Shown piece after piece: positions 1,485 to 11,675 of a stretch of DNA of 32,000 nt. Under the pieces are notes generated by a model. That model saw nothing but the letters and a program-made list of their open reading frames with translations. It searched no databases and was not told the origin of the DNA. The translations under genes and the position numbers were made by a program. Position 1 is the first letter of the stretch; each line of letters opens with the position of its first letter. Source of the DNA: Geomonas oryzisoli (GTDB lineage Bacteria; Desulfobacterota; Desulfuromonadia; Geobacterales; Geobacteraceae); assembly GCF_018986915.1 (NCBI RefSeq), contig NZ_CP076723.1, positions 3,964,228-3,996,227 of the forward strand, given 5' to 3'.

Positions 1485-4400
1485 TCACGGCGGCGCCCCC
1501 CGGCGCCAGAACACCTCGGTCTCGATGGTGAGCGGGTAGCCGTCCCCCCACTTGCCGGAGATCTCCGCCTTGAGCGCCTTGAGGCGCCGCTCCACCAGGG
1601 CCTTGCTCTCCACCTCGGCGAGGTAGGAAAGCCTGAGCACCGCCGGGGCCTTGCGCAACTCCTTCAAAAGGAGGTCGATCCGCGGCTGCCACTGCCTGCG
1701 CAGCCTGGTTCCGTTGGGTTCGAAGGCGCCGTCGGCGACGTCCAGGGAGACCACGTGGTGGATGGCGGCGCCGAAGTTGAAGCGCAGCATCTTGCCCCGT
1801 GTCGCCCGCTGCACCTGGGGGTTCTCGCCGGTGACGCGGTACCCGGTAGGGAGGGTGCGCTCGTCGAGCTTGAGGATGAAGTTGCTGCCCCGGTCCTGGT
1901 CCGGGACCATCGCGCAGGTGATGTGGAAGCGGCCGAACTCGTCGGTGGTGGCGACGAGCCCCCGGGCGGTCACGGCGCGCACACCGGCGAGCCCCTTTTC
2001 TCCCTGGTCCGGGTAGCCGTTGGTGTTGACGTCGTCAAACACCTTGCCGATCACGTCGGTGCAGTCGAGGTCCGCATCGGGGATGACGCGGACGGTCGCC
2101 GAGGCGACCCCGGAGGCGACGCTGTCGGTGATGTTGCTCAGCACCTGGGCGCGGTTCACGTACTCCCCTTCGGAGACGCCGGAGCCGACGATCATGAGGA
2201 AGGTGATGCTGTGGCTGGTGCTGCTGGTGAGCTGCGAGATGTTCCAGGTCATCTGGCGCGTGTTCTGCGTCGGCTCCGCCTTGCGGCCGTCCAGGCGCGC
2301 CGACCCCGCCACGTACTTGAATCCCGCCGGGAAAGTGTCCACCACGCTCAGGTCCCTGAGGGTCGCCCCCAGGGTGTTGTTGAGGGTGATGGTGTAGGGG
2401 ACCAGGGTGCCGCGCGACACGTCGGTCACGGCCGCGGTCTTGGTGATGGCGATCGCCGTGTTGAGCGTGGGATCGACGGCGATGTGGTTGTTGTAGATCT
2501 GGCTGTAGCCGGGCTGCAGGTTGTCCAGGGTAAGCCGCAGGTAATAGGCGGTAGCGGCGCCGGGGAGGACGGAGGTGCCGGGCGCCAGGTCGGAGGCCTG
2601 CGCCTCGCAGTACCCGGCCGTGGTCGGCACCGCGTCGAAGGCGCCGCCGGGGCAGGAGGGTACCGCGAAGGAGGCGGTGCTGTCGCTGGAGGCCGGGGGC
2701 ACCAGTTTCGAGACGCCCGCCGTGTACCCGGATGCCGGCGGCGTCACCTGGATCAGGTAATCCCCGCCGGAGGGGCAGGAAGGATCGCTGAAGTTGAGGT
2801 CGAACTTGTAGAGGCCGCTGGCCGTGGTGACCTGCCCCTGCTGCACCGGGTCATTGAAGCAGCTCGCGGCGAGAGCTGTCCTGCTTGCCGCCTGGACCAT
2901 GGTCAGCGTCGCGCCCGGCACCGGGGTGCGGACGATGGAGTTGTAGACCACGCCGTTGGGGGTGAGCGGCAGGTTCAGCCCCTGCAGCAGCGTCCCCCCT
3001 CCGGCCACGATGTCGGAGATGCGCTGCATGCCGTTGGTGAAGGGAGAGCTGCACCATCCCAAGAGGGCGGTGGCGGCGCCGGCGCCCGGCGCGCGGAAGC
3101 GGAGTTCATACCTGATCGCGGTGCCGGCGTTGGGGGTCACCCCGCTGAAGCGGTAGGAGCCGTCGGCGGAGCTGTTCACCGTCCCCACCGCGCGGCCGTC
3201 CTGGTACAGCTCCACCGCCCACCCCGCCGACGGGATCTCGCCGCCGTCAAGGACGTTGTCGTGGTTCGCGTCCTGCCACACCGAGCCGGCGAGGCTCGCA
3301 CTCCCCGGCATGCCGCCCACGGTGACCGCGGTCCCGGCGCTCGCCACCCGGGTGGGGGTGTCCCAGCTCGCCTGGGCGGTGTTGTTGACCACGCTGCCGC
3401 TGGACACGGTGGCGTTCAGCTTCACCTGGAAGCGCAGCGCGACGGAAGCACCCGGCGCCAGGGCGCCGTGGCTCGCGCCGTAGTTGGCAGTCAGGACCGG
3501 CGCCGCGTAACTGACCCCGCTGGAGGAGCCGTTCATGACAGCGGAGCCGGAGAGGTAGCTCCCCTGGGGCAGCAGCGGGGTCAGGTCGTCGGTCAGCACC
3601 ACGCCCGTAGCCGGGACCTGCCCTATGTTGGTGGCGCGCACCGTGTATTCCAGGATGCTCCCCGGCAGCGCGGCACCGCCGCCGACCACCACGGCGGACT
3701 TGGTGATGCTGAGCTGCTGGGCGTTCCCCACCGCGATCACCGTGGGCTGGTAGCCGTTGGCGGGGGTGCCGTCGGAGTCGGTGGCAAGCAGCGGCAGTTC
3801 CGCGCTGGCGACGCTCCCCTGGTTGCTGATCACGGTACCCGCAGCGACTCCCTGGTTGACCTGGACCTTGAAGGTTACGACACCGGTGCCGCCTGCCGCG
3901 AGTGTCCCGGCGGTCGCGGGGGGCGCGGGCGGGGTGACTCCCGGGGAGACGACACCGATGCCGTTGGTGAGGGGGGAAACTCCGGCCGCCGCGTCGGCTA
4001 CCGCCGCACCGTTCAGGCGTACGCTGTTCGGGACGTAGGTGGTGTTGGCGGGGATGGCGTCGGTGAACAGCACGCCGGTCGCGGGTGGCGCCCCCGAGTT
4101 GGTCATGGTGATGGTGTACTGGAGCTCGTCGCCGGGATCGACCAGGCCGTCGCCGTTGGCGTCGGCGACGAGCTGGACCGTCTTCAGCGCGTAGAGAAGC
4201 GGCAGGTTGCCGACGATCACGGTGGTCGGATCGTTGGGCACCGGCGTCGCCGGGTTGTCGGAAGCCTCTTCCGGGAACGGGCCGCTTGCCGCACCGGTCC
4301 CGGCCAGGAAGGCCTGATTGGAGATGAGGGTCCCGGCCACGACGCTCCTGCTGATCCTGACCTCGAAGGTGACGGTGGCCACGTTGCTCGCGGTACCGGC

Positions 4401-7400
4401 GGCCGCGGGCATGGTGCCCGGCACCGGGTTCGCGGGCGAGTTGACCGTCATACCCCCCTGCAGCGGGCTCGCAGCGCCGACGTCCGCCACCGGCTTGCCG
4501 TTCAGGGTGGTGCTGTTGGGGACATAGGCGGTGTTCGCGGGGACCTGGTCGCGCAGCGTGACCCCGGTCGCGTTCTCGGTGCCGTCGTTCTTGACGGTGA
4601 TGGTGTAGCGCAGCGTATCGCCCGCCTTGACCGTGGCGCTCCCGGAGGTAACGTCCCTGACCGTCTTCTGGAGCAGGAACCGCGGAGCCGACGCGATGAC
4701 GGTCCGGGTCGGGTCGGCCGTCCCCGGCAGCGAGGGGTCGTCGCTCAACTGCGACGGCAGCAGGGGGGACGCGACCTGCGCCTGGTTCTGCACCAGCGAA
4801 CCGCTGTCGAGCACCGGCGCCAGGGTGTCCTGGAACTCGACCAGCAGCACGTCACCCGCCTGCCCCTGCGGGGCCACGGTCAGGTTGCCGACGCTCACCA
4901 CCCCGGTCCCCTTGCCACCGCCGTTGACCGAGGTGGCGGCGACGTTCGCGCCGGCCGGGACGCTCAACAGCTTCAGCGTTCCGGGTGCGAACATGGCGGT
5001 CGCGTTCAGCTTGTCGAGTTCGTCGGTCAGGGTGAAGTTCGCCGCGCCCAGGGCGCCCACGTTGCGGATGGTGAGGGTGTACTTGAGGGTGTCGCCGGGC
5101 CTCGCGTTGGCACCGGACTGCCCGGTCGTTGCGTTCTGCACGGTCTTGGTGAAGCTCAAAAGCGGCGCCTGGGTGGTCACGGTGAAGGCGTCCTGGCTGT
5201 CGAGTACCCCGGGGGTGCCGTTGGTCAGCGCGGCGGTCGTGGCCTGTATATCCCCTGTAGCGGTGACCGCAGGGTCGGCGCTCAGCCACCTGGTGGCGCC
5301 CGCCACGTTGGTGAGGGTGATCCCCCCCGCCGTGTAGGGGTCGAGCGAGGCGCTGTACGTCACCAGCAGTCGCTCTCCCGGCGCGATGGCCGCCGCGGAC
5401 GACTTCATGGCGACGGTCATGGTGCAGGCGGGCGCGGGGGCGAAGCCCACGGTGAAGTCGGTGCCGTTCACGAGGTTCGCCGAGACGGGGGTGACCCCGT
5501 CGGCCTGGTAGACGCGCGCCGTGACGCCGGTCGGCGCCGAGCCGCACATGCTCCCCGGGGCGGGGGTGGTCACGCTGGGGAGGAGGTCGGTGAGGGTGGC
5601 CTGCCACGCGGTGCTGCCGCCGGTATTCTGGACGTTGAGCGTGAACAGGCCCGGGGCGAGCGCGTTGATGGTGGCCGGTCCGCTCTTTTGCACGGTCAGC
5701 GCGGGGCCGACGATGATGATCGCGGCGCTGGCGCCCGGCGCGCCGTTGGCCTGGGTGGCGGGGGTGCTGTTGACGCCGTTGTAGGTGTAGGTCGCCGTGT
5801 TCTGGAACTGCTTGCCGAGCGTGTTGGCGGCGGAATTGGTGAGCAGCACGGTGACGTTGATCACGGCCTGCTGGCCGGCCGGTATGTCGATGCCGCTGCC
5901 GCTGTCCTGGATCACGAGGCTCGTGGCGCTGCCGCTGTTGACCGGGGTGAAGGCAGGGCCGGAAACCCGCTGGACGCTCACGAAGCGCAGGTCCACCCCG
6001 GTCGCCGCGGCGCTCAAGTCGTCCAGGATGCGCACGTCGTACATGGCGGTGGGCTGAGGCACCGCGGGAACGGTGATGGTGTAGCCGAAGGGGCGGCCGA
6101 TGGCGGCGCTGGTCACCTGGGCCTGCTTCGAGAGCGCCGTGGCCGCCGCGGTGGTGAGCTGCACGGTGGCCGCGCTGGTCGGGCCGTAGAGCTGGCGGTT
6201 GGCGGGTACGCTCGCCGCCGGGATGTCCTGGCTGTCGAAGGAGTAGTAGCCGGTCACCTGCGCCTGGTTGTTCAGGGTCACCCCGGCGCCCAGCCCCGCG
6301 TCCCCCTTCACCTGGTAGGTCACCTGCAGGGTCTGCCCCGGGGGGACCGCGTAGAGCCCCGCCGAACCGGCCGCGTCGAAATTCCAGGTGGCGATACCGC
6401 TGGCCGCGCTGTAGCTCGGGGCGAGCGTGGGCAGGGTGGCGCTGGTCGTGCCGGTGGCGCTGTCCACGAGCGTGACGCCGGTGGTGGTGACGCCCCCCTG
6501 GCGCAGGCCGACCGGCAGGGTGTCGGCGAGGACCGGGTCGTAGGCCGGGGCGGTACCGCTGTTGGCCATCCTGACGGTGTAGGTGATCGCCTCGCCGGCG
6601 CTGATCACCGTGCCGCCGCCTGCCGTGGCCGCGCTCTTGGTGACGTTCAACAGCGGTTGCCAGACGTTCAAGGTGGCGCCGGAGTTCTTCGGGGTCGCGG
6701 CCACGCCGTTGATGGCGTAGTTGAGCGTGGCGCTGTTGACGAGCTGCTGCGCCGTCGGGGACTGCGCCAGCGCGTTCTTGACCACGTGGGCGCGGTACTG
6801 GATGGTGAGCGTGTTGTTCGCCGCGTTGTTGTCGGCCGTGTTGACGACGTTGCCCAGGTTCCAGGTCAGGGTGCCGGTGGCGCCGGGCGCTGGCTGGGAG
6901 GAGACCGTGTAGCTGAAATTGCCGCTCCCCGAGGCGGGGGCGATGCTCACCAGGGCGTCGTAGGCGAGGCCGGCCGGGAGCTGGTCGGTGAGCACCACGT
7001 TCTGCGTGGTCCCTTCCCGCAGGGTGAGGGCAAGGTTGTAGACCACGGTATCGCCCACCCGCACGGTCGCGTCGGTCGCACTCCCCGGTGCGGCGCTCCA
7101 GGAATCGGAGACCACGGTTTTGGCGAGGGCGGTCGGGTCCAGCGAGGAGACGGTGGCGGAGACCGGGCCGGAACAGTAGTTGTTGGGAAGGGTGGTGGCG
7201 GGGCAGCCGGCGCCTGTGCGTTCGCCGGGGACCGAGCCGGAGAGCGAGGTCCAGTCGACGTAGACGTCGTTGGTGATGGGGGCGCCGCTGGTCTCCAGCA
7301 CGGTCACCAGGTAGCTCAGCACCAGGGTCCCGCCGGCCGGGATGTCCAGGCTCGCGTCGCCGTTTTGGCTCCCCCAGTCCACGGCGCCGCTGGGAAGAGC

Positions 7401-10115
7401 GGCGGGCGTGGGCATGAAGCCGGTCACCGGCGCGCCGTTGATCTGCGCGGTGGCCGAGCCCGGTACCAGCGAGACGTTGGCGGGAAGGAAGTCCATGACG
7501 TCGGCATCGTAGGCCCGGGAGCCGCCGTCGTTGGTGACGGTGACGGTGTAGCGCAGGACGTCTGCGGGGGCCGCGGCGGCGGACGCGGCTTTCCCTGCCG
7601 GGGAGGCGTAGCCGACCGCCTTGGCCGCGGTGAGGTGCGGTTCGACCACCGTCATGTTGGCCGTGGTCGCCGCGCCGCCGGCCGACTGGGTCAGGCTGTC
7701 GCCGTTTAGCTTGTTGTAGGTGTAGGAAGCGGTGTTGCTGAAGCTGAGTCCAGCGCGGTTCGCACTGCTGTTCTGCAGTGCCGCCGTCACCTGGATAACC
7801 GCCTGCCCCCCCGCCGGTATGTCGATGCCGGTGGCGAGGTCCTGGAGGATGACGTTGGTCGCCGTGCCGGTGTTGGTGAGGTTCCAGTTGCCGCCGGAGA
7901 TGACGTCGGCACCGACGAAGCTCATGCCTGCCGCCGAGAGCCCCAGGTTGTCCAGTATCCTCACGTCGTAGAGCGGGACGTCCGCCGGGGTGGCGGGTAC
8001 CTTGATCAGGTAGCTGAACTGCTGACCGACGGTCGCCGTGGTCGAGGCAGGGTTCGCCTTGGAGAGTGCCCCCGGCGCCTGGATGGTGACCCTGGTGGGG
8101 TCTCCGCCGGAGCCGAGCAGCACGGTCCCATTGCTATAGGGATCGTCGCTCGGGCCGGCCCAGACCGTGACGGGGTTGGTGCTGGTGTCGGTCCCGGTGA
8201 CGCCGGCCTGGTTGGAGACGACGGTGCCGTTGGTGAGGGTCGCGTCGAGGGTCGCGTCGAACTCGACCTGGATCTGCGCAGTGGTGGTGGCGCCACCGGG
8301 GAGGGTGAGGCCGGAAACGGTGACGGACCCCGGGGTGCCGCCGCCGGGCTGGGTGACGCTCACCGTGCCGCCCGCCGGGGTGACGGTGACGTTGGAGACG
8401 GAGCGCAGCCCGGCCGGGAGGGTATCGGTGATGGTGACCCCGTTCAAGGGGGGCCAGGTGAAGTTCTGCAAAAGCAGGGTGTAGTGCAGCCGGTCTCCCG
8501 GAAAGGCCGCCGTGGCCGGATTGGCTCCGGTGGTCAGGTCGCGCACCGTCTTCTGGAAGTAGTAGCCTGCCAGCGCGGCGGTCACCGTGTAGGCATCCTG
8601 GAAGTCGAGGGTGCCGGGGGTGCCGTCGGTTATGGTCCGGTCGTACTCGCGGCGCCCGGGATAGCCGCTGTTGGCGCTGAACCACCTGGTGGCGCCGGCG
8701 ATGTTGGTGAGCGTCGCCCCCGAGGCGACCCCGGTGCTGTCGACCTGCGCCCGGTAGGTGACGATGAGGCGCTGGGTGGGGGCGATCTTGGCGGAATCGA
8801 GCAGGGTCAGGGTGAGCTGCCCGGGGGAACCGGGGCCGCCGCTCCAGGTGGTGGTGAAGTCGGTGCCGCTCACCAGCGGGGCCGACACCGGGGTCACCCC
8901 GTCGGAGGCGAAGACCTGGGCGCTGATGGTCCCGACCGGGGAGACGGTGCTCATGCCGGCCGGGATGTGGTCGGTGATGGTGGCGTTCCACGCTTCGCTT
9001 CCGCCGGTGTTCTGGACGTTGAGCGTGTACCTCACCTGTGAATCCATGTTGACCGTCGCAGCCGAACCGCTCTTGGTAAGGGTGAGGTTCGGCTCGACCA
9101 CCGTCATGGGCGGGGTGGTACCGGGCCATGCCTGCAGGTCCACCATGCTGGTGCTGTTGATCGGTTTGTTGAACCACATGTTGGCGGTGTTGGAGAACTG
9201 CGACCCCGCCTGGTTCACGCCGGCCGGGTTGCTGTCGAGGACGACGGTGACCTGGATCTCCAGGTTGTACCCTGCCGGGAGCGAGGCCAGCGCCGGGTTG
9301 TATTCGTAGGAGAAGACCAGGTGCCTGGTGGCGTCCGAGAGGACGCCGGGATGGCTGCTGAGCCAGCCGCCGCTCGCCCCGAGGGTGAGCGGCGCCCCTC
9401 CGTTGAGCGGCGCCCTCGCGCCGGTAGCGGGGTTCACGAGGTAGGCGGCGTTGGTCACGTAGCTCAGGGCGGCGCCCGTGGCGGTCAAGTCGTCGGGGAT
9501 GACCACGTTGGTCACCGTGGCGTCGTCGCTGTTGGCGATGTACTGGAACGTCCCCGTCGCGTCGAGTTTCCCCAAAAGCGGCACACTGATCGTATAGGTG
9601 AAGGGGACACCGACGGCGGCGGTGCTTTGCGCCGGGGGATTCTTCTTGCTCACCGCGTCGACCGGCACCATGAAGGCCTGGCAGGCCGGGCTGATGTTGT
9701 TGTACCCGCCCGGAGCCCAGTAGATCCAGAAATCGGACTGCGTCGGGTCGTTGCACGACATGTTGCCGTAATAAAAGACGTTCAGGAACGCGATGTAGTA
9801 GGATTGCTGCTGCGGGAAGTTGAAGTTTATGTTGGTGATCGGGAAGCCGCCGATGGAATCGGGGAAGTTCTTGATGGTGCAGTTGGTGTCGATCCCGAAG
9901 GTGGACGCCCCCCTGACCGCGGCGAGGGTGGCGGGGTTGTTGCCGTCGACCACGCCGCCGAACTGGGAGCAGAAGATCCCCGCTGCCCGGGCAGACGTGC
10001 CCCATCCGACCAGCATGACCAAAAGGGCGGCGGTCGCAGCCAGGCGCGCCACGGACCTGGCGGCGCCCATCCTGGCGGCGGCCATCGATAACATCAGCTT
10101 TGTCTGTGTCAGCAT
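1485..10115 (-). CDS. Giant secreted repeat protein (roughly 2,880 aa): N-terminal signal peptide, Cys-containing head domain, three isopeptide-D2-like modules, about eleven DUF11 (TIGR01451-type 'conserved repeat') domains, and two SdrD-B/Cna-B-like domains; putative adhesin or surface-layer component
   Basis: ORF 1485..10181 (2898 aa). The likely start is ATG 10115 ([46 protein letters not shown]); alternatives are 10094, 10085 and 10070. Recurrent DUF11 signatures are present (LTKSG...[81 protein letters not shown]). Cna-B-like segments are [16 protein letters not shown]...DGSYRFSGV and [23 protein letters not shown]...DEFGRFHI. There is no LPXTG motif, T1SS-type RTX repeat or autotransporter beta-domain. 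Confidence 0.9.
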   Translation of the reverse strand: [2876 protein letters not shown]

Positions 10116-10186
10116 TCTCACTTCTGCCCTCGATGAAGATCGCTCAACTACTGTTGCGGCCCTTGGCAGGCCGACCTGCACGCACC

Positions 10187-10236
10187 ACGAAAAAAACCCG
10201 CGCCACAGCCGGTACTTCGGCTGATGACGCGGGTTT
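10187..10236 (-). terminator. Strong rho-independent terminator between the 57-codon ORF and the giant gene
   Basis: The minus-strand RNA reads AAACCCGCG-uca-UCAGCCG-aaguac-CGGCUG-ugg-CGCGGGUUUUUUU. This gives 9-bp outer and 6-bp inner stems followed by a run of 7 U. On the plus strand the hairpin has no U-tract. Confidence 0.7.
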
Positions 10237-10308
10237 CACTTGCCCCGTAGGGATGAGACTTACCGCTGTTTCAATGCTGCTGTCGATTTTCCGGCCGGGG
10301 TGGCCGGG

Positions 10309-10482
10309 TCACTTCATTCTTTCGTTCCTGATCGCGTCGCAAACGCGGTAGTCGGCGATGTTCACCGTGACCTGCAGGTGCGGCGCGGAAAGAAGCCCGA
10401 TCTCCTTCATGCACTCGGTCAGCTTTCGTTTCCACTCCGGGTCAAGGGTTCGTTTGGTCAATTTTTCCATTGCATGCCTCAT
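10309..10482 (-). CDS. Hypothetical 57-aa protein, the first ORF downstream of the tandem riboswitches
   Basis: Not in the ORF track (below 60 aa). It runs from ATG 10482 (in-frame ATG 10470) to TGA 10311-10309. The RBS-like AGGAAAG sits 5 nt upstream. The translation is MRHAMEKLTKRTLDPEWKRKLTECMKEIGLLSAPHLQVTVNIADYRVCDAIRNERMK. No family was recognised. Confidence 0.45.
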   Translation of the reverse strand: MRHAMEKLTKRTLDPEWKRKLTECMKEIGLLSAPHLQVTVNIADYRVCDAIRNERMK

Positions 10483-10499: not shown

Positions 10500-10539
10500 A
10501 AAAAAAGAGCGCTCCCATCTACCGAAGATGAGAGCGCTC
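10500..10539 (-). terminator. Intrinsic terminator of riboswitch unit A (promoter-distal unit)
   Basis: The minus-strand RNA is GAGCGCUCUCAUCU-ucggu-AGAUGGGAGCGCUC followed by UUUUUUU. One position is a G-U wobble on the minus strand but a C-A mismatch on the plus strand, which fixes the functional strand. Confidence 0.8.
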
Positions 10540-10575
10540 CTAGATCGGGGGGGGTGCCGGATGCCAAGATGCTGA

Positions 10576-10661
10576 CTCATCTCTTCGGCAACCCGGCTAT
10601 CCTTCACAGGACCCGTGGCTTTGCGTCACCAGATCACTCTGGTTTTGCCCGTTCGGAGAAC
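10576..10661 (-). promoter_or_regulatory. GEMM-I (c-di-GMP-I family, Rfam RF01051-type) riboswitch aptamer, unit A
   Basis: The minus strand reads GUUCUCCGAACGGGCAAAACCAGA-GUGA-UCUGGUGACGCAAAGCCACGGGUCCU-GUGA-AGGAUAGCCGGGUUGCCGAAGAGAUGAG. It has the conserved GCAAA(A)CC box, a GNRA-capped P1 hairpin, the GACGCAAAGCC core, a P2 hairpin and the GGUUGCCGA 3' strand. Confidence 0.85.
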
Positions 10662-10702: not shown

Positions 10703-10741
10703 AAAAAAAGGCGCTCCCATCTGCCAAAGATGAGAGCGCCT
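10703..10741 (-). terminator. Intrinsic terminator of riboswitch unit B (promoter-proximal unit)
   Basis: The minus-strand RNA is AGGCGCUCUCAUCU-uuggc-AGAUGGGAGCGCCU followed by UUUUUUU. It carries the same minus-strand-only G-U wobble as unit A. Confidence 0.8.
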
Positions 10742-10774
10742 CTTGATCGGTAATAGCGGATGCCAAGATGGGAA

Positions 10775-10862
10775 CTCATCTCTTCGGCAACTCGGCTATC
10801 CTCATTCAAGGACCCGTGGCTTTGCGTCACCAGATCACTCTGGGTTTGCCCGTTCGGAGAAC
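10775..10862 (-). promoter_or_regulatory. GEMM-I (c-di-GMP-I family) riboswitch aptamer, unit B
   Basis: The minus strand reads GUUCUCCGAACGGGCAAACCCAGA-GUGA-UCUGGUGACGCAAAGCCACGGGUCCU-UGAAUG-AGGAUAGCCGAGUUGCCGAAGAGAUGAG. It has the same architecture as unit A, about 200 nt upstream of it. Confidence 0.85.
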
Positions 10863-11541: not shown

Positions 11542-11649
11542 AAAAAGCCGGGGCTTCGATATCAGGAGTGATATTTCGGCGACCCGGCTGTCTCGGTGAG
11601 ACCCTTTAGGCTTTCCGTCCCATCCTCGCGGATGGTTTAGTATTTTCGT
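11542..11649 (-). promoter_or_regulatory. Variant GEMM-I-like cyclic-dinucleotide aptamer (about 11573-11649) plus a putative terminator-type expression platform (11542-11589), in the hemerythrin leader
   Basis: The minus strand reads ACGAAAAUACUAAACCAUCC-GCGA-GGAUGGGACGGAAAGCCUAAAGGGUCUC-ACC-GAGACAGCCGGGUCGCCGAAAU. It has the GEMM-I layout (AAACC box, GNRA hairpin, GAC-G-AAAGCC core, second hairpin, AGCCGGGU.GCCGA). The canonical GC...GC closing pairs are replaced by the covarying CU...GG. The aptamer strand AGCCGGG (11589-11583) can instead pair with CCCGGCU (11552-11546), which is followed by UUUU. Confidence 0.55.
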
Positions 11650-11675
11650 GTATCGGTTCTTGTTATTGCGGACGC

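Follow-up and report, generated by a model that had tools for sequence, protein, structure and literature searches.

In a 32,000-nucleotide (nt) window of the complete 4.85-Mb genome of Geomonas oryzisoli (contig NZ_CP076723.1, positions 3,964,228 to 3,996,227 of the forward strand), a gene for a small protein lies between two tandem cyclic-dinucleotide riboswitches and an 8.6-kb gene for a giant surface protein; all features of this locus are on the minus strand of the window. The 72 nt that separate the stop codon of the small gene from the terminator behind it contain a near-invariant structured element that the initial annotation had not noticed, an imperfect hairpin of 38 nt. Because the 3′ strand of this hairpin doubles as the base of the 5′ arm of the terminator, the two structures cannot coexist. 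On comparative evidence, hairpin and terminator are conserved, covarying and mutually exclusive, and together they probably form a regulated switch. A fuller model, in which the giant gene would be gated by an antiterminator switch derived from phages, with the small protein as its effector, has in our judgement an even chance of being right. More tentatively, the pair may represent a new self-contained class, in which a protein of approximately 50 residues clamps its cognate bulged hairpin behind its own gene, serving phages as an early-to-late switch and captured by Geobacteraceae as a persistence filter for an adhesin.

The hairpin and the terminator

From its base to its top, the hairpin consists of a helix, P1 (GCGG/CCGC), a 3-nt 5′ bulge (UAA), a GU/AC helix, a C·A mismatch, a UCAU/GUGA helix, a 3-nt 3′ bulge (CAA), a 3-bp apical stem and a UACG tetraloop. 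Approximately 40 nt downstream of the small open reading frame (ORF) are near-identical in 13 genomes, while the sequence on either side, like the synonymous sites of the ORF, has diverged freely. A 33-nt core occurs once per genome in 18 of 239 searched genomes of the order, with zero mismatches in 12 of the 18; these genomes span several genera and two families, and the number of synonymous substitutions per synonymous site (dS) of the adjacent ORF is around 1. The hairpin element is single-copy in the genome of the window. No family of Rfam (version 15) matches it even at E ≤ 10, one phage copy gave no match at permissive thresholds, and for hairpin and terminator together (10266..10190) we found neither a GEMM-I match nor any other Rfam match above noise at that threshold.

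The initial annotation had placed a strong terminator about 70 nt past the stop codon and had called it the strongest of the region, and both statements hold. A long hairpin with a U7 tract begins after 72 nt, its GC-rich stem of 19 bp is followed directly by the U tract, as is characteristic of intrinsic terminators, and its folding energy is −34 kcal/mol, compared with about −27.5 kcal/mol for both riboswitch terminators. The extent first given, 10187-10236, has to be shortened, as the U tract occupies 10196..10190 and the terminator therefore spans 10236..10190.

A strand that is common to both structures defines the generic antiterminator–terminator switch, and such a strand is found here both by folding and by covariation in locus L089. 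In prefix folding, the hairpin forms first (−12.4 kcal/mol), persists during formation of the distal stem of the terminator and is displaced only once the last six bases of the terminator 3′ arm emerge. If the hairpin is enforced in constrained folding, the stem that remains ends 6 nt short of the U tract. Given the geometry that intrinsic terminators usually have, a stem set back by six bases from the U tract does not qualify as one.

All variants of the element fold into the same hairpin closed by P1, and the substitutions either fall in loops or bulges or preserve pairs. Among Geobacteraceae, these changes are A to G, U to C or a replacement by AAUU in the tetraloop, A to U in a bulge, conversion of the C·A mismatch to U–A and of a C–G pair to U–G; one variant loses the terminal U·G pair. 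Divergent copies, which were gathered through the protein and not through the RNA, have the same architecture, with apical stems of CCU/AGG, CCU/GGG or CUC/GAG, GNRA or other stable loops, 3′ bulges of CAA, UAA, AGC or CU, and inner helices that differ in composition and length. The apical loops seen are UACG, GAAA, UUCA, GCAA and AAUU, and the most conserved parts of the hairpin are the bulges and the helix ends that adjoin P1.

In L089, the first pair of P1 is inverted (G–C to C–G) and the matching base in the 3′ arm of the terminator is also changed, such that both helices are kept; this is a three-way compensatory change of P1 (5′ strand), shared strand and terminator 3′ arm. Across the hairpin, 85% of cells are paired, as against at most 55% with slid partners, double changes occur at 8 of 14 pairs and none of 500 shuffles reaches the observed values, all of these counts being taken from a model-fitted (covariance-model) alignment that is biased towards the model structure. 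The hairpin count is conservative because the rows of subtype B are shifted by one column in the apical stem. For the terminator (21 sequences), the share of paired cells is 89% overall and 100% in the basal helix, where three of the seven pairs show compensatory change.

Several other properties of the element were considered. At five loci (L011:1728-1823, L035:1443-1539, L043:678-772, L069 and L072), a partial duplication of 16–17 nt of the 3′ half of the hairpin (GGGCAAGTGA[AT]ACCC) lies inside the element, and P1 remains closed in the fold of the enlarged RNA. At many loci outside Geomonas (for example, L010, L022, L046 and L062), a purine-rich motif, AATTGAATAGAAC(A)AA, occurs 15–20 nt upstream of the hairpin; it is present in Geobacteraceae and phage copies, is degenerate in Geomonas and could be a binding, processing or spacing element. 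We rejected a promoter in this motif, as there is no acceptable −35 sequence at 16–18 nt and the motif is lacking in Geomonas. A kink-turn was rejected by eye, because the pairs that follow both 3-nt bulges are Watson–Crick or G–U and not tandem sheared G·A. We also rejected a peptide-coding role of the element, which has no start codon and no third-position pattern, and anti-Shine–Dalgarno pairing of the hairpin with the ribosome-binding site of the giant gene, for which only 4 bp are possible and the complementarity is missing in the phage copies.

The small protein and its coupling to the RNA

The initial annotation had described an ORF of 57 codons plus stop (10482..10309) downstream of both riboswitch terminators. 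The ORF is present there and its frame is conserved, but its proposed start, ATG 10482, is absent in several relatives; the conserved start is the fifth codon, ATG 10470, and the product therefore has 53 amino acids. A GAGG-like motif precedes the aligned ATG by 6–7 nt in 17 of 18 related loci, the other (L038) having GGGG. Conservation and the ratio of non-synonymous to synonymous substitution rates (dN/dS) had been proposed as a check on the ORF, and both favour it. In a six-frame search, open homologues with 67–95% identity and no internal stops were found in 12 of 60 related genomes, with a pairwise dN/dS of 0.02–0.18 and a dS of up to about 1 (44 ungapped C-terminal codons); 17, 8 and 37 of the 44 columns vary at codon positions 1, 2 and 3, respectively. 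By these measures the small ORF is a genuine protein-coding gene under purifying selection.

Homologues of the small protein are also found in many metagenomes, and the closest ones are in Geomonas. A public protein database holds 60 clusters at 67–91% identity, called ‘hypothetical protein’ where named, and close homologues are annotated as hypothetical proteins of 53 amino acids in Geomonas propionica and Citrifermentans bremense. AlphaFold2 with a deeper alignment predicts a helix (residues 13–23) and a β-hairpin (residues 33–49) at a mean predicted local distance difference test (pLDDT) score of 82; a shallow alignment gave a pLDDT of 60, which is too poor for use.

A profile search of 1.8 billion representative proteins yielded 55 family proteins, nearly all of 43–90 residues, which have in common a W-K-K-x-L helix and a G-x-[IV]-x-[IV]-N-x-N-x-G-x-[IV] hairpin. 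Four proteins of 410–474 residues (P0074, P0080, P0109 and P0112) each have seven or eight short profile matches and may be repeat proteins built from a segment related to the small protein. The family resembles DUF2292/YezD (PF10055) in size and in a similar C-terminal β-hairpin motif (...G.I.I..N.G.V..IE..E.I.). One distant member, P0084, matches PF10055 with 17.7 bits (E = 0.0027), under the Pfam gathering threshold of 22 bits, whereas neither the protein of the window nor any of 30 other members tested individually has a PF10055 match. In a literature search on DUF2292/YezD we found no paper on its function.

Protein and RNA occur together. A covariance model built from 21 sequences has exactly one same-strand match in 71 of the 71 fetched loci that encode a family protein, a set that includes several duplicates of the same genomic place, and the match is downstream of the ORF in all loci read directly. 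The distance from the stop codon to P1 ranges from 0 nt (phage subtype B) to approximately 220 nt, and is 42 nt in the window. The longest distance is that of an IMG/VR phage contig (L105:3124-3345), in which hairpin and terminator are not directly behind the small ORF. Each protein subtype is paired with its own RNA subtype. In the Geomonas genome G009 (L018:1477-1750), a subtype-B protein with its hairpin–terminator occupies the slot that subtype A has in other Geomonas, and the riboswitch terminator upstream and the giant gene downstream are unchanged around the swapped pair. Because the whole pair has been replaced, protein and RNA behave as one exchangeable unit. We infer that the small protein binds the hairpin.

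The same cassette is found in phages, at the border between early and late genes. In L085 and L086, genes assigned by PHROGs run from a methyltransferase through a replication initiator and a helicase loader (DnaC-like; L086) to the small ORF, the hairpin and terminator, and then the small terminase, the large terminase and the portal; L099–L104 have the same downstream sequence. In another phage locus (L062), the protein–RNA pair is flanked by the portal gene and the major head gene, and no GEMM aptamer was found. A tblastn search of INPHARED (cultured phages) with three protein subtypes gave no match. From these contexts, the cassette of Geobacteraceae looks like a phage switch that was probably domesticated, with transfer presumed to run from phage to host.

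Proposed mechanism and alternative explanations

We hypothesize that a single transcription unit spans the locus and passes three successive conditional terminators. The two cyclic-dinucleotide riboswitches would let RNA polymerase into the gene of the 53-residue protein, and behind this gene the nascent RNA would fold first into the conserved hairpin (10266..10229). If left alone, the last six bases of the terminator 3′ arm would displace the base of the hairpin, and transcription would stop around 70 nt before the giant gene. If the hairpin were held shut, only the distal stem could form, six bases from the U tract, and polymerase would read through into the 8.6-kb gene. The likeliest clamp would be the small protein itself, made from the same transcript. 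In Geomonas, the outcome would be a feed-forward delay, or AND gate, in which only a sustained cyclic-dinucleotide signal yields sufficient protein for the third gate to open; in phages, late genes would be delayed until the product of the last early gene accumulates.

The initial annotation had left open whether the small protein is the only target of the riboswitches, whether the giant gene depends on regulated readthrough of a third terminator or whether it has a hidden promoter. The giant gene (N-terminal 400 amino acids) is present in 14 of 61 genomes, of which 13 are those with the small ORF and the fourteenth is G009 (diverged copy), and every cassette of Geobacteraceae has one to four GEMM-I units on its upstream side and the giant gene on its downstream side. 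In at least 5 of 18 genomes, as well as in several metagenome loci, an extra GEMM-I aptamer sits between the cassette terminator and the giant gene at tandem-like spacing; a further aptamer behind the terminator otherwise makes no sense, which argues for readthrough. Comparative data thus favour regulated readthrough, because the covarying hairpin overlaps the terminator, no conserved promoter is found, aptamers lie behind the terminator and the cassette co-occurs with the giant gene, and we infer that the terminator is conditional in vivo. The small protein is a real riboswitch-controlled product, but its strict linkage to the giant gene argues against its being the sole target. The hidden promoter is without support.

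Several observations weigh against this reading. The terminator is approximately 10 kcal/mol more stable than the competing hairpin state, and a clamp must therefore supply that energy or act kinetically. The bias of the alignment behind the hairpin pair counts belongs here too. The small protein has no recognizable RNA-binding domain and matches no Pfam (E ≤ 1), NCBIfam or PHROG family; a sequence profile search of the PDB returned nothing below E = 0.28, and Foldseek searches of the PDB and BFVD returned nothing below E = 0.4. The matching of protein and RNA subtypes is expected from linkage alone and is no proof of interaction, because the two are adjacent and co-inherited. As for the phages, their terminator might do no more than close the early operon behind its last gene, with the late genes read from a separate promoter.

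A further point of this kind comes from G031, a complete Geobacteraceae genome (L112:1500-1820). It has a related hairpin and terminator (35 bits) with the same GCGG...CCGC overlap, placed behind a gene for an XRE-type helix–turn–helix protein and a translationally coupled 53-residue ORF without detectable similarity to the family. Because this copy follows an unrelated ORF, the RNA may not need the small protein. The ORF was rejected as a hidden family member (hhalign probability 0.3%), and G031 may hold an analogous cassette with a different protein. A promoter-like sequence, TTGCCC-N17-AATACT, lies approximately 30 nt upstream of the G031 hairpin.

The sequence between terminator and giant gene bears on whether transcription has to cross the terminator at all. 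The initial annotation had found no sigma70 or sigma54 promoter in this gap of around 70 nt, and neither did we: a consensus scan finds no sigma70 site on the minus strand, and by eye nothing fits the sigma54 consensus TGGCAC-N5-TTGC. A GG-N10-GC sequence can be found, but we rejected it as a sigma54 promoter because its flanks misfit the consensus and the site is not conserved. Across related loci, we found no promoter conserved in the gap or in the 5′ untranslated region (UTR) block of the giant gene. The lack of a conserved promoter, and a gap of only about 35 nt in some Geomonas species, count against the idea that a constitutive terminator ends a short transcript, with the hairpin acting as a 3′-UTR small RNA or as a stabilizing or processing structure, and that the giant gene has an unrecognized promoter. 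We consider this unlikely, although the very stable stem with its U7 tract is typical of efficient terminators and of the 3′ ends of Hfq-type small RNAs, sequence conservation exceeds the needs of pairing, a purine-rich stretch precedes the hairpin in many loci and the G031 hairpin combines a promoter-like sequence just upstream with the absence of a family protein. A 3′-UTR role would leave the joint covariation of the shared strand, the hairpin 5′ strand and the terminator 3′ arm unexplained, GEMM-I aptamers directly behind the terminator would be useless without readthrough, and a freely varying apical loop and inner helix do not fit a seed region.

If the terminator is indeed conditional, its effector need not be the small protein. 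A small molecule or ion, which would make the hairpin a new riboswitch class, or a host factor could act instead, and the protein would then work elsewhere, for example, together with the adhesin or in the assembly of phages. The alternative-structure architecture is that of riboswitch expression platforms, conservation is highest in the bulges and helix ends beside P1, no known RNA-binding fold is seen in the protein and the G031 copy lacks a family protein. The internal loops nevertheless vary between subtypes in both bulge sequence (CAA, UAA, AGC and CU) and helix length, which is unusual for a ligand pocket, and a 38-nt hairpin with 13 base pairs offers little space for a binding site. The RNA is moreover tied to the protein in all 71 loci, and phage and cellular contexts have no other gene in common. 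We therefore hold a different effector to be distinctly unlikely.

Operon-internal attenuating terminators are common, and the terminator could be merely leaky, so that the small protein is abundant and the giant protein scarce in a constant ratio, with the hairpin kept for an unrelated reason. This is very unlikely given that it is the strongest terminator in the region (−34 kcal/mol, U7) and that near-invariance over 38 nt, preserved mutual exclusivity and three-way covariation are hard to explain without a function. Translation-coupled attenuation, in which a ribosome at the stop codon of the small ORF would cover the hairpin 5′ strand and so favour the terminator while untranslated RNA reads through, would suit phage subtype B and L089, in which P1 starts 0–4 nt past the stop codon, but is highly improbable in view of the 40–190 nt seen in Geobacteraceae (42 nt with an intervening hairpin in the window) and of a peptide whose sequence and fold are conserved well past the needs of a leader peptide.

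The GCGGTA at the start of the element also brought an RfaH/LoaP–ops mechanism to mind. We rejected it, as the genome has a single NusG-family gene: PF02357 has one match, in a frame of 179 amino acids that is of housekeeping-NusG size, and GCGGTA resembles ops at 6 of 12 bases.

Related systems and other features of the locus

Protein-dependent switches of similar design are known. When an antiterminator has its own ribonucleic antiterminator (RAT) hairpin and terminator, its gene can directly precede them, as glcT does before ptsG, and bglG lies between two terminators. The switch resembles the RAT systems of the BglG/SacY/LicT/GlcT type (for example, B. subtilis glcT–RAT–ptsG and E. coli bglG). 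In these, the 5′ arm of an intrinsic terminator is overlapped by a short, imperfect hairpin that has conserved bulges, termination fails if this hairpin is kept closed, and protein binding to it permits readthrough in the LicT and SacY cases (PMC5393181, PMC3575810). The hairpin of the window has two bulges and overlaps its terminator by 5–6 nt, which is a likeness of architecture. In contrast to BglG and SacY, which are built from an N-terminal co-antiterminator (CAT) domain and two phosphotransferase system (PTS) regulation domains (PRD), the small protein has 53 residues and no CAT_RBD or PRD domain, and none was found in 31 family members. The cassette further differs from RAT systems in having no Rfam match and no evident PTS sugar input, in being common to phages and in that the small protein is a putative RNA binder.

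Lambdoid phages offer a second comparison. As with Q/tR′ and N/nut, the early or replication block closes with the gene of a small regulator (here a candidate), and a terminator directly behind it separates it from the late genes (here terminase and head genes); as with N/nut, a hairpin of the nascent transcript would be the recognized element. Q binds DNA at a promoter-proximal pause, and N/nut with the Nus factors modifies RNA polymerase to become resistant to terminators over long distances. Here, by contrast, the hairpin physically competes with one specific terminator, and simple occlusion is therefore enough. The small protein also lacks an arginine-rich motif like that of N, and the variable apical loop argues against loop recognition of the boxB type. 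The switch would operate in the manner of a RAT/CAT antiterminator, occupies the place of lambdoid Q and is a member of neither group. Neither the protein family nor the RNA motif seems to have been described before in the libraries and literature that we searched, and this applies equally to the coupling of the two and to their occurrence in phages.

If the model is right, an unusually small antiterminator protein with its cognate RNA joins a short list (BglG/SacY, ANTAR, HutP, PyrR, N and Q), the switching-on of late genes in a set of uncultured phages is explained, and a phage timing device has been domesticated behind second-messenger riboswitches, where it gates a giant surface fibre. The cassette, with a total of approximately 250 nt, should be portable and might serve as a compact orthogonal transcriptional gate. 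Even without protein binding, the hairpin–terminator would remain a structured RNA family with good support, including covariation, that has not been described and is not in Rfam 15.

Table 1. Features of the locus in window coordinates, with the basis of each assignment
Feature	Position	Strand	Basis or remark
Conserved imperfect hairpin (38 nt), candidate antiterminator	10229..10266	−	Conservation, folding, covariation
Shared strand ACCCGC	10229..10234	−	Pairs with hairpin 5′ GCGG (10266..10263) or with terminator 3′ arm
Intrinsic terminator, 13 + 6 bp stem with one bulge, U7 at 10196..10190	10190..10236	−	RNAfold
Short GC hairpin directly after stop codon	10291..10307	−	Centroid fold; sequence variable, similar small hairpins in related loci
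Small protein gene, 53 codons + stop (10311..10309)	10309..10470	−	Homologues, dN/dS, AlphaFold2
GAGG Shine–Dalgarno sequence of small gene, 6 nt upstream of ATG 10470	10477..10480	−	Alignment of related loci
GEMM-I (cyclic di-GMP-I, c-di-GMP-I) aptamer, first tandem unit	10783..10860	−	Rfam RF01051, 61.5 bits
Terminator (expression platform), first tandem unit	10706..10744	−	Terminator scan; −27.7 kcal/mol
GEMM-I (c-di-GMP-I-GGC variant) aptamer, second tandem unit	10583..10658	−	Rfam RF03167, 62.6 bits
Terminator (expression platform), second tandem unit	10505..10541	−	Terminator scan; −27.4 kcal/mol
Giant surface-protein gene (DUF11 repeats, isopeptide-forming fimbrial-type domains)	1485..10121	−	Pfam, NCBIfam
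GAGGG Shine–Dalgarno sequence of giant gene	10127..10131	−	Alignment by eye of downstream regions

The two riboswitch units that the initial annotation had placed upstream of the small ORF, each with its own terminator, are borne out by Rfam and by the terminator scan. Three GEMM-I aptamers of the window are matched by Rfam, the two in tandem and one (11651..11575) upstream of a hemerythrin gene. The tandem units are ordinary members of the GEMM-I/GEMM-Ib tandem riboswitches of Geobacter, which are known ahead of genes for surface and extracellular-electron-transfer proteins (PMC6456294). Because deletion of gacA, which encodes the cyclic GMP–AMP (cGAMP) synthase, lowers the expression of genes behind GEMM-Ib units in Geobacter (PMC6456294), these units switch expression on. 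The third terminator of the window differs from those of the Geobacter tandems in that it has no GEMM aptamer; its alternative hairpin is an undescribed RNA tied to a protein gene.

The conserved start of the giant gene, for which the mechanical frame has 2,898 codons, is GTG 10121 and neither ATG 10115, which is ATT or ATC in close relatives, nor GTG 10181. The mechanical ORF, which opens at 10181, probably has 20 untranslated codons at its beginning. GAGGG and GTG 10121 lie within the 5′-UTR block, which is kept in most loci whichever terminator precedes it. The gap upstream of this gene is more variable. In the window, it contains a GC hairpin (GGTCGGCC...GGGCCGC; 10133-10189, minus strand), with arms that vary between closely related Geomonas; this hairpin is absent from the G. 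edaphica/oryzae group (gap compared in L002–L004), where the gap is approximately 35 nt. Between terminator and giant gene, eight loci outside Geomonas (L022, L011, L049, L050, L056, L057, L072 and L075) share an insert of about 130 nt, some 20–230 nt after the terminator, that begins ...GGTTGCTGAAAA.CAGCCATCTCGCC... and ends ...GATCTGAC.GTTTTTGAGCA; it has the look of a small repeat or mobile element, and a promoter could lie within it.

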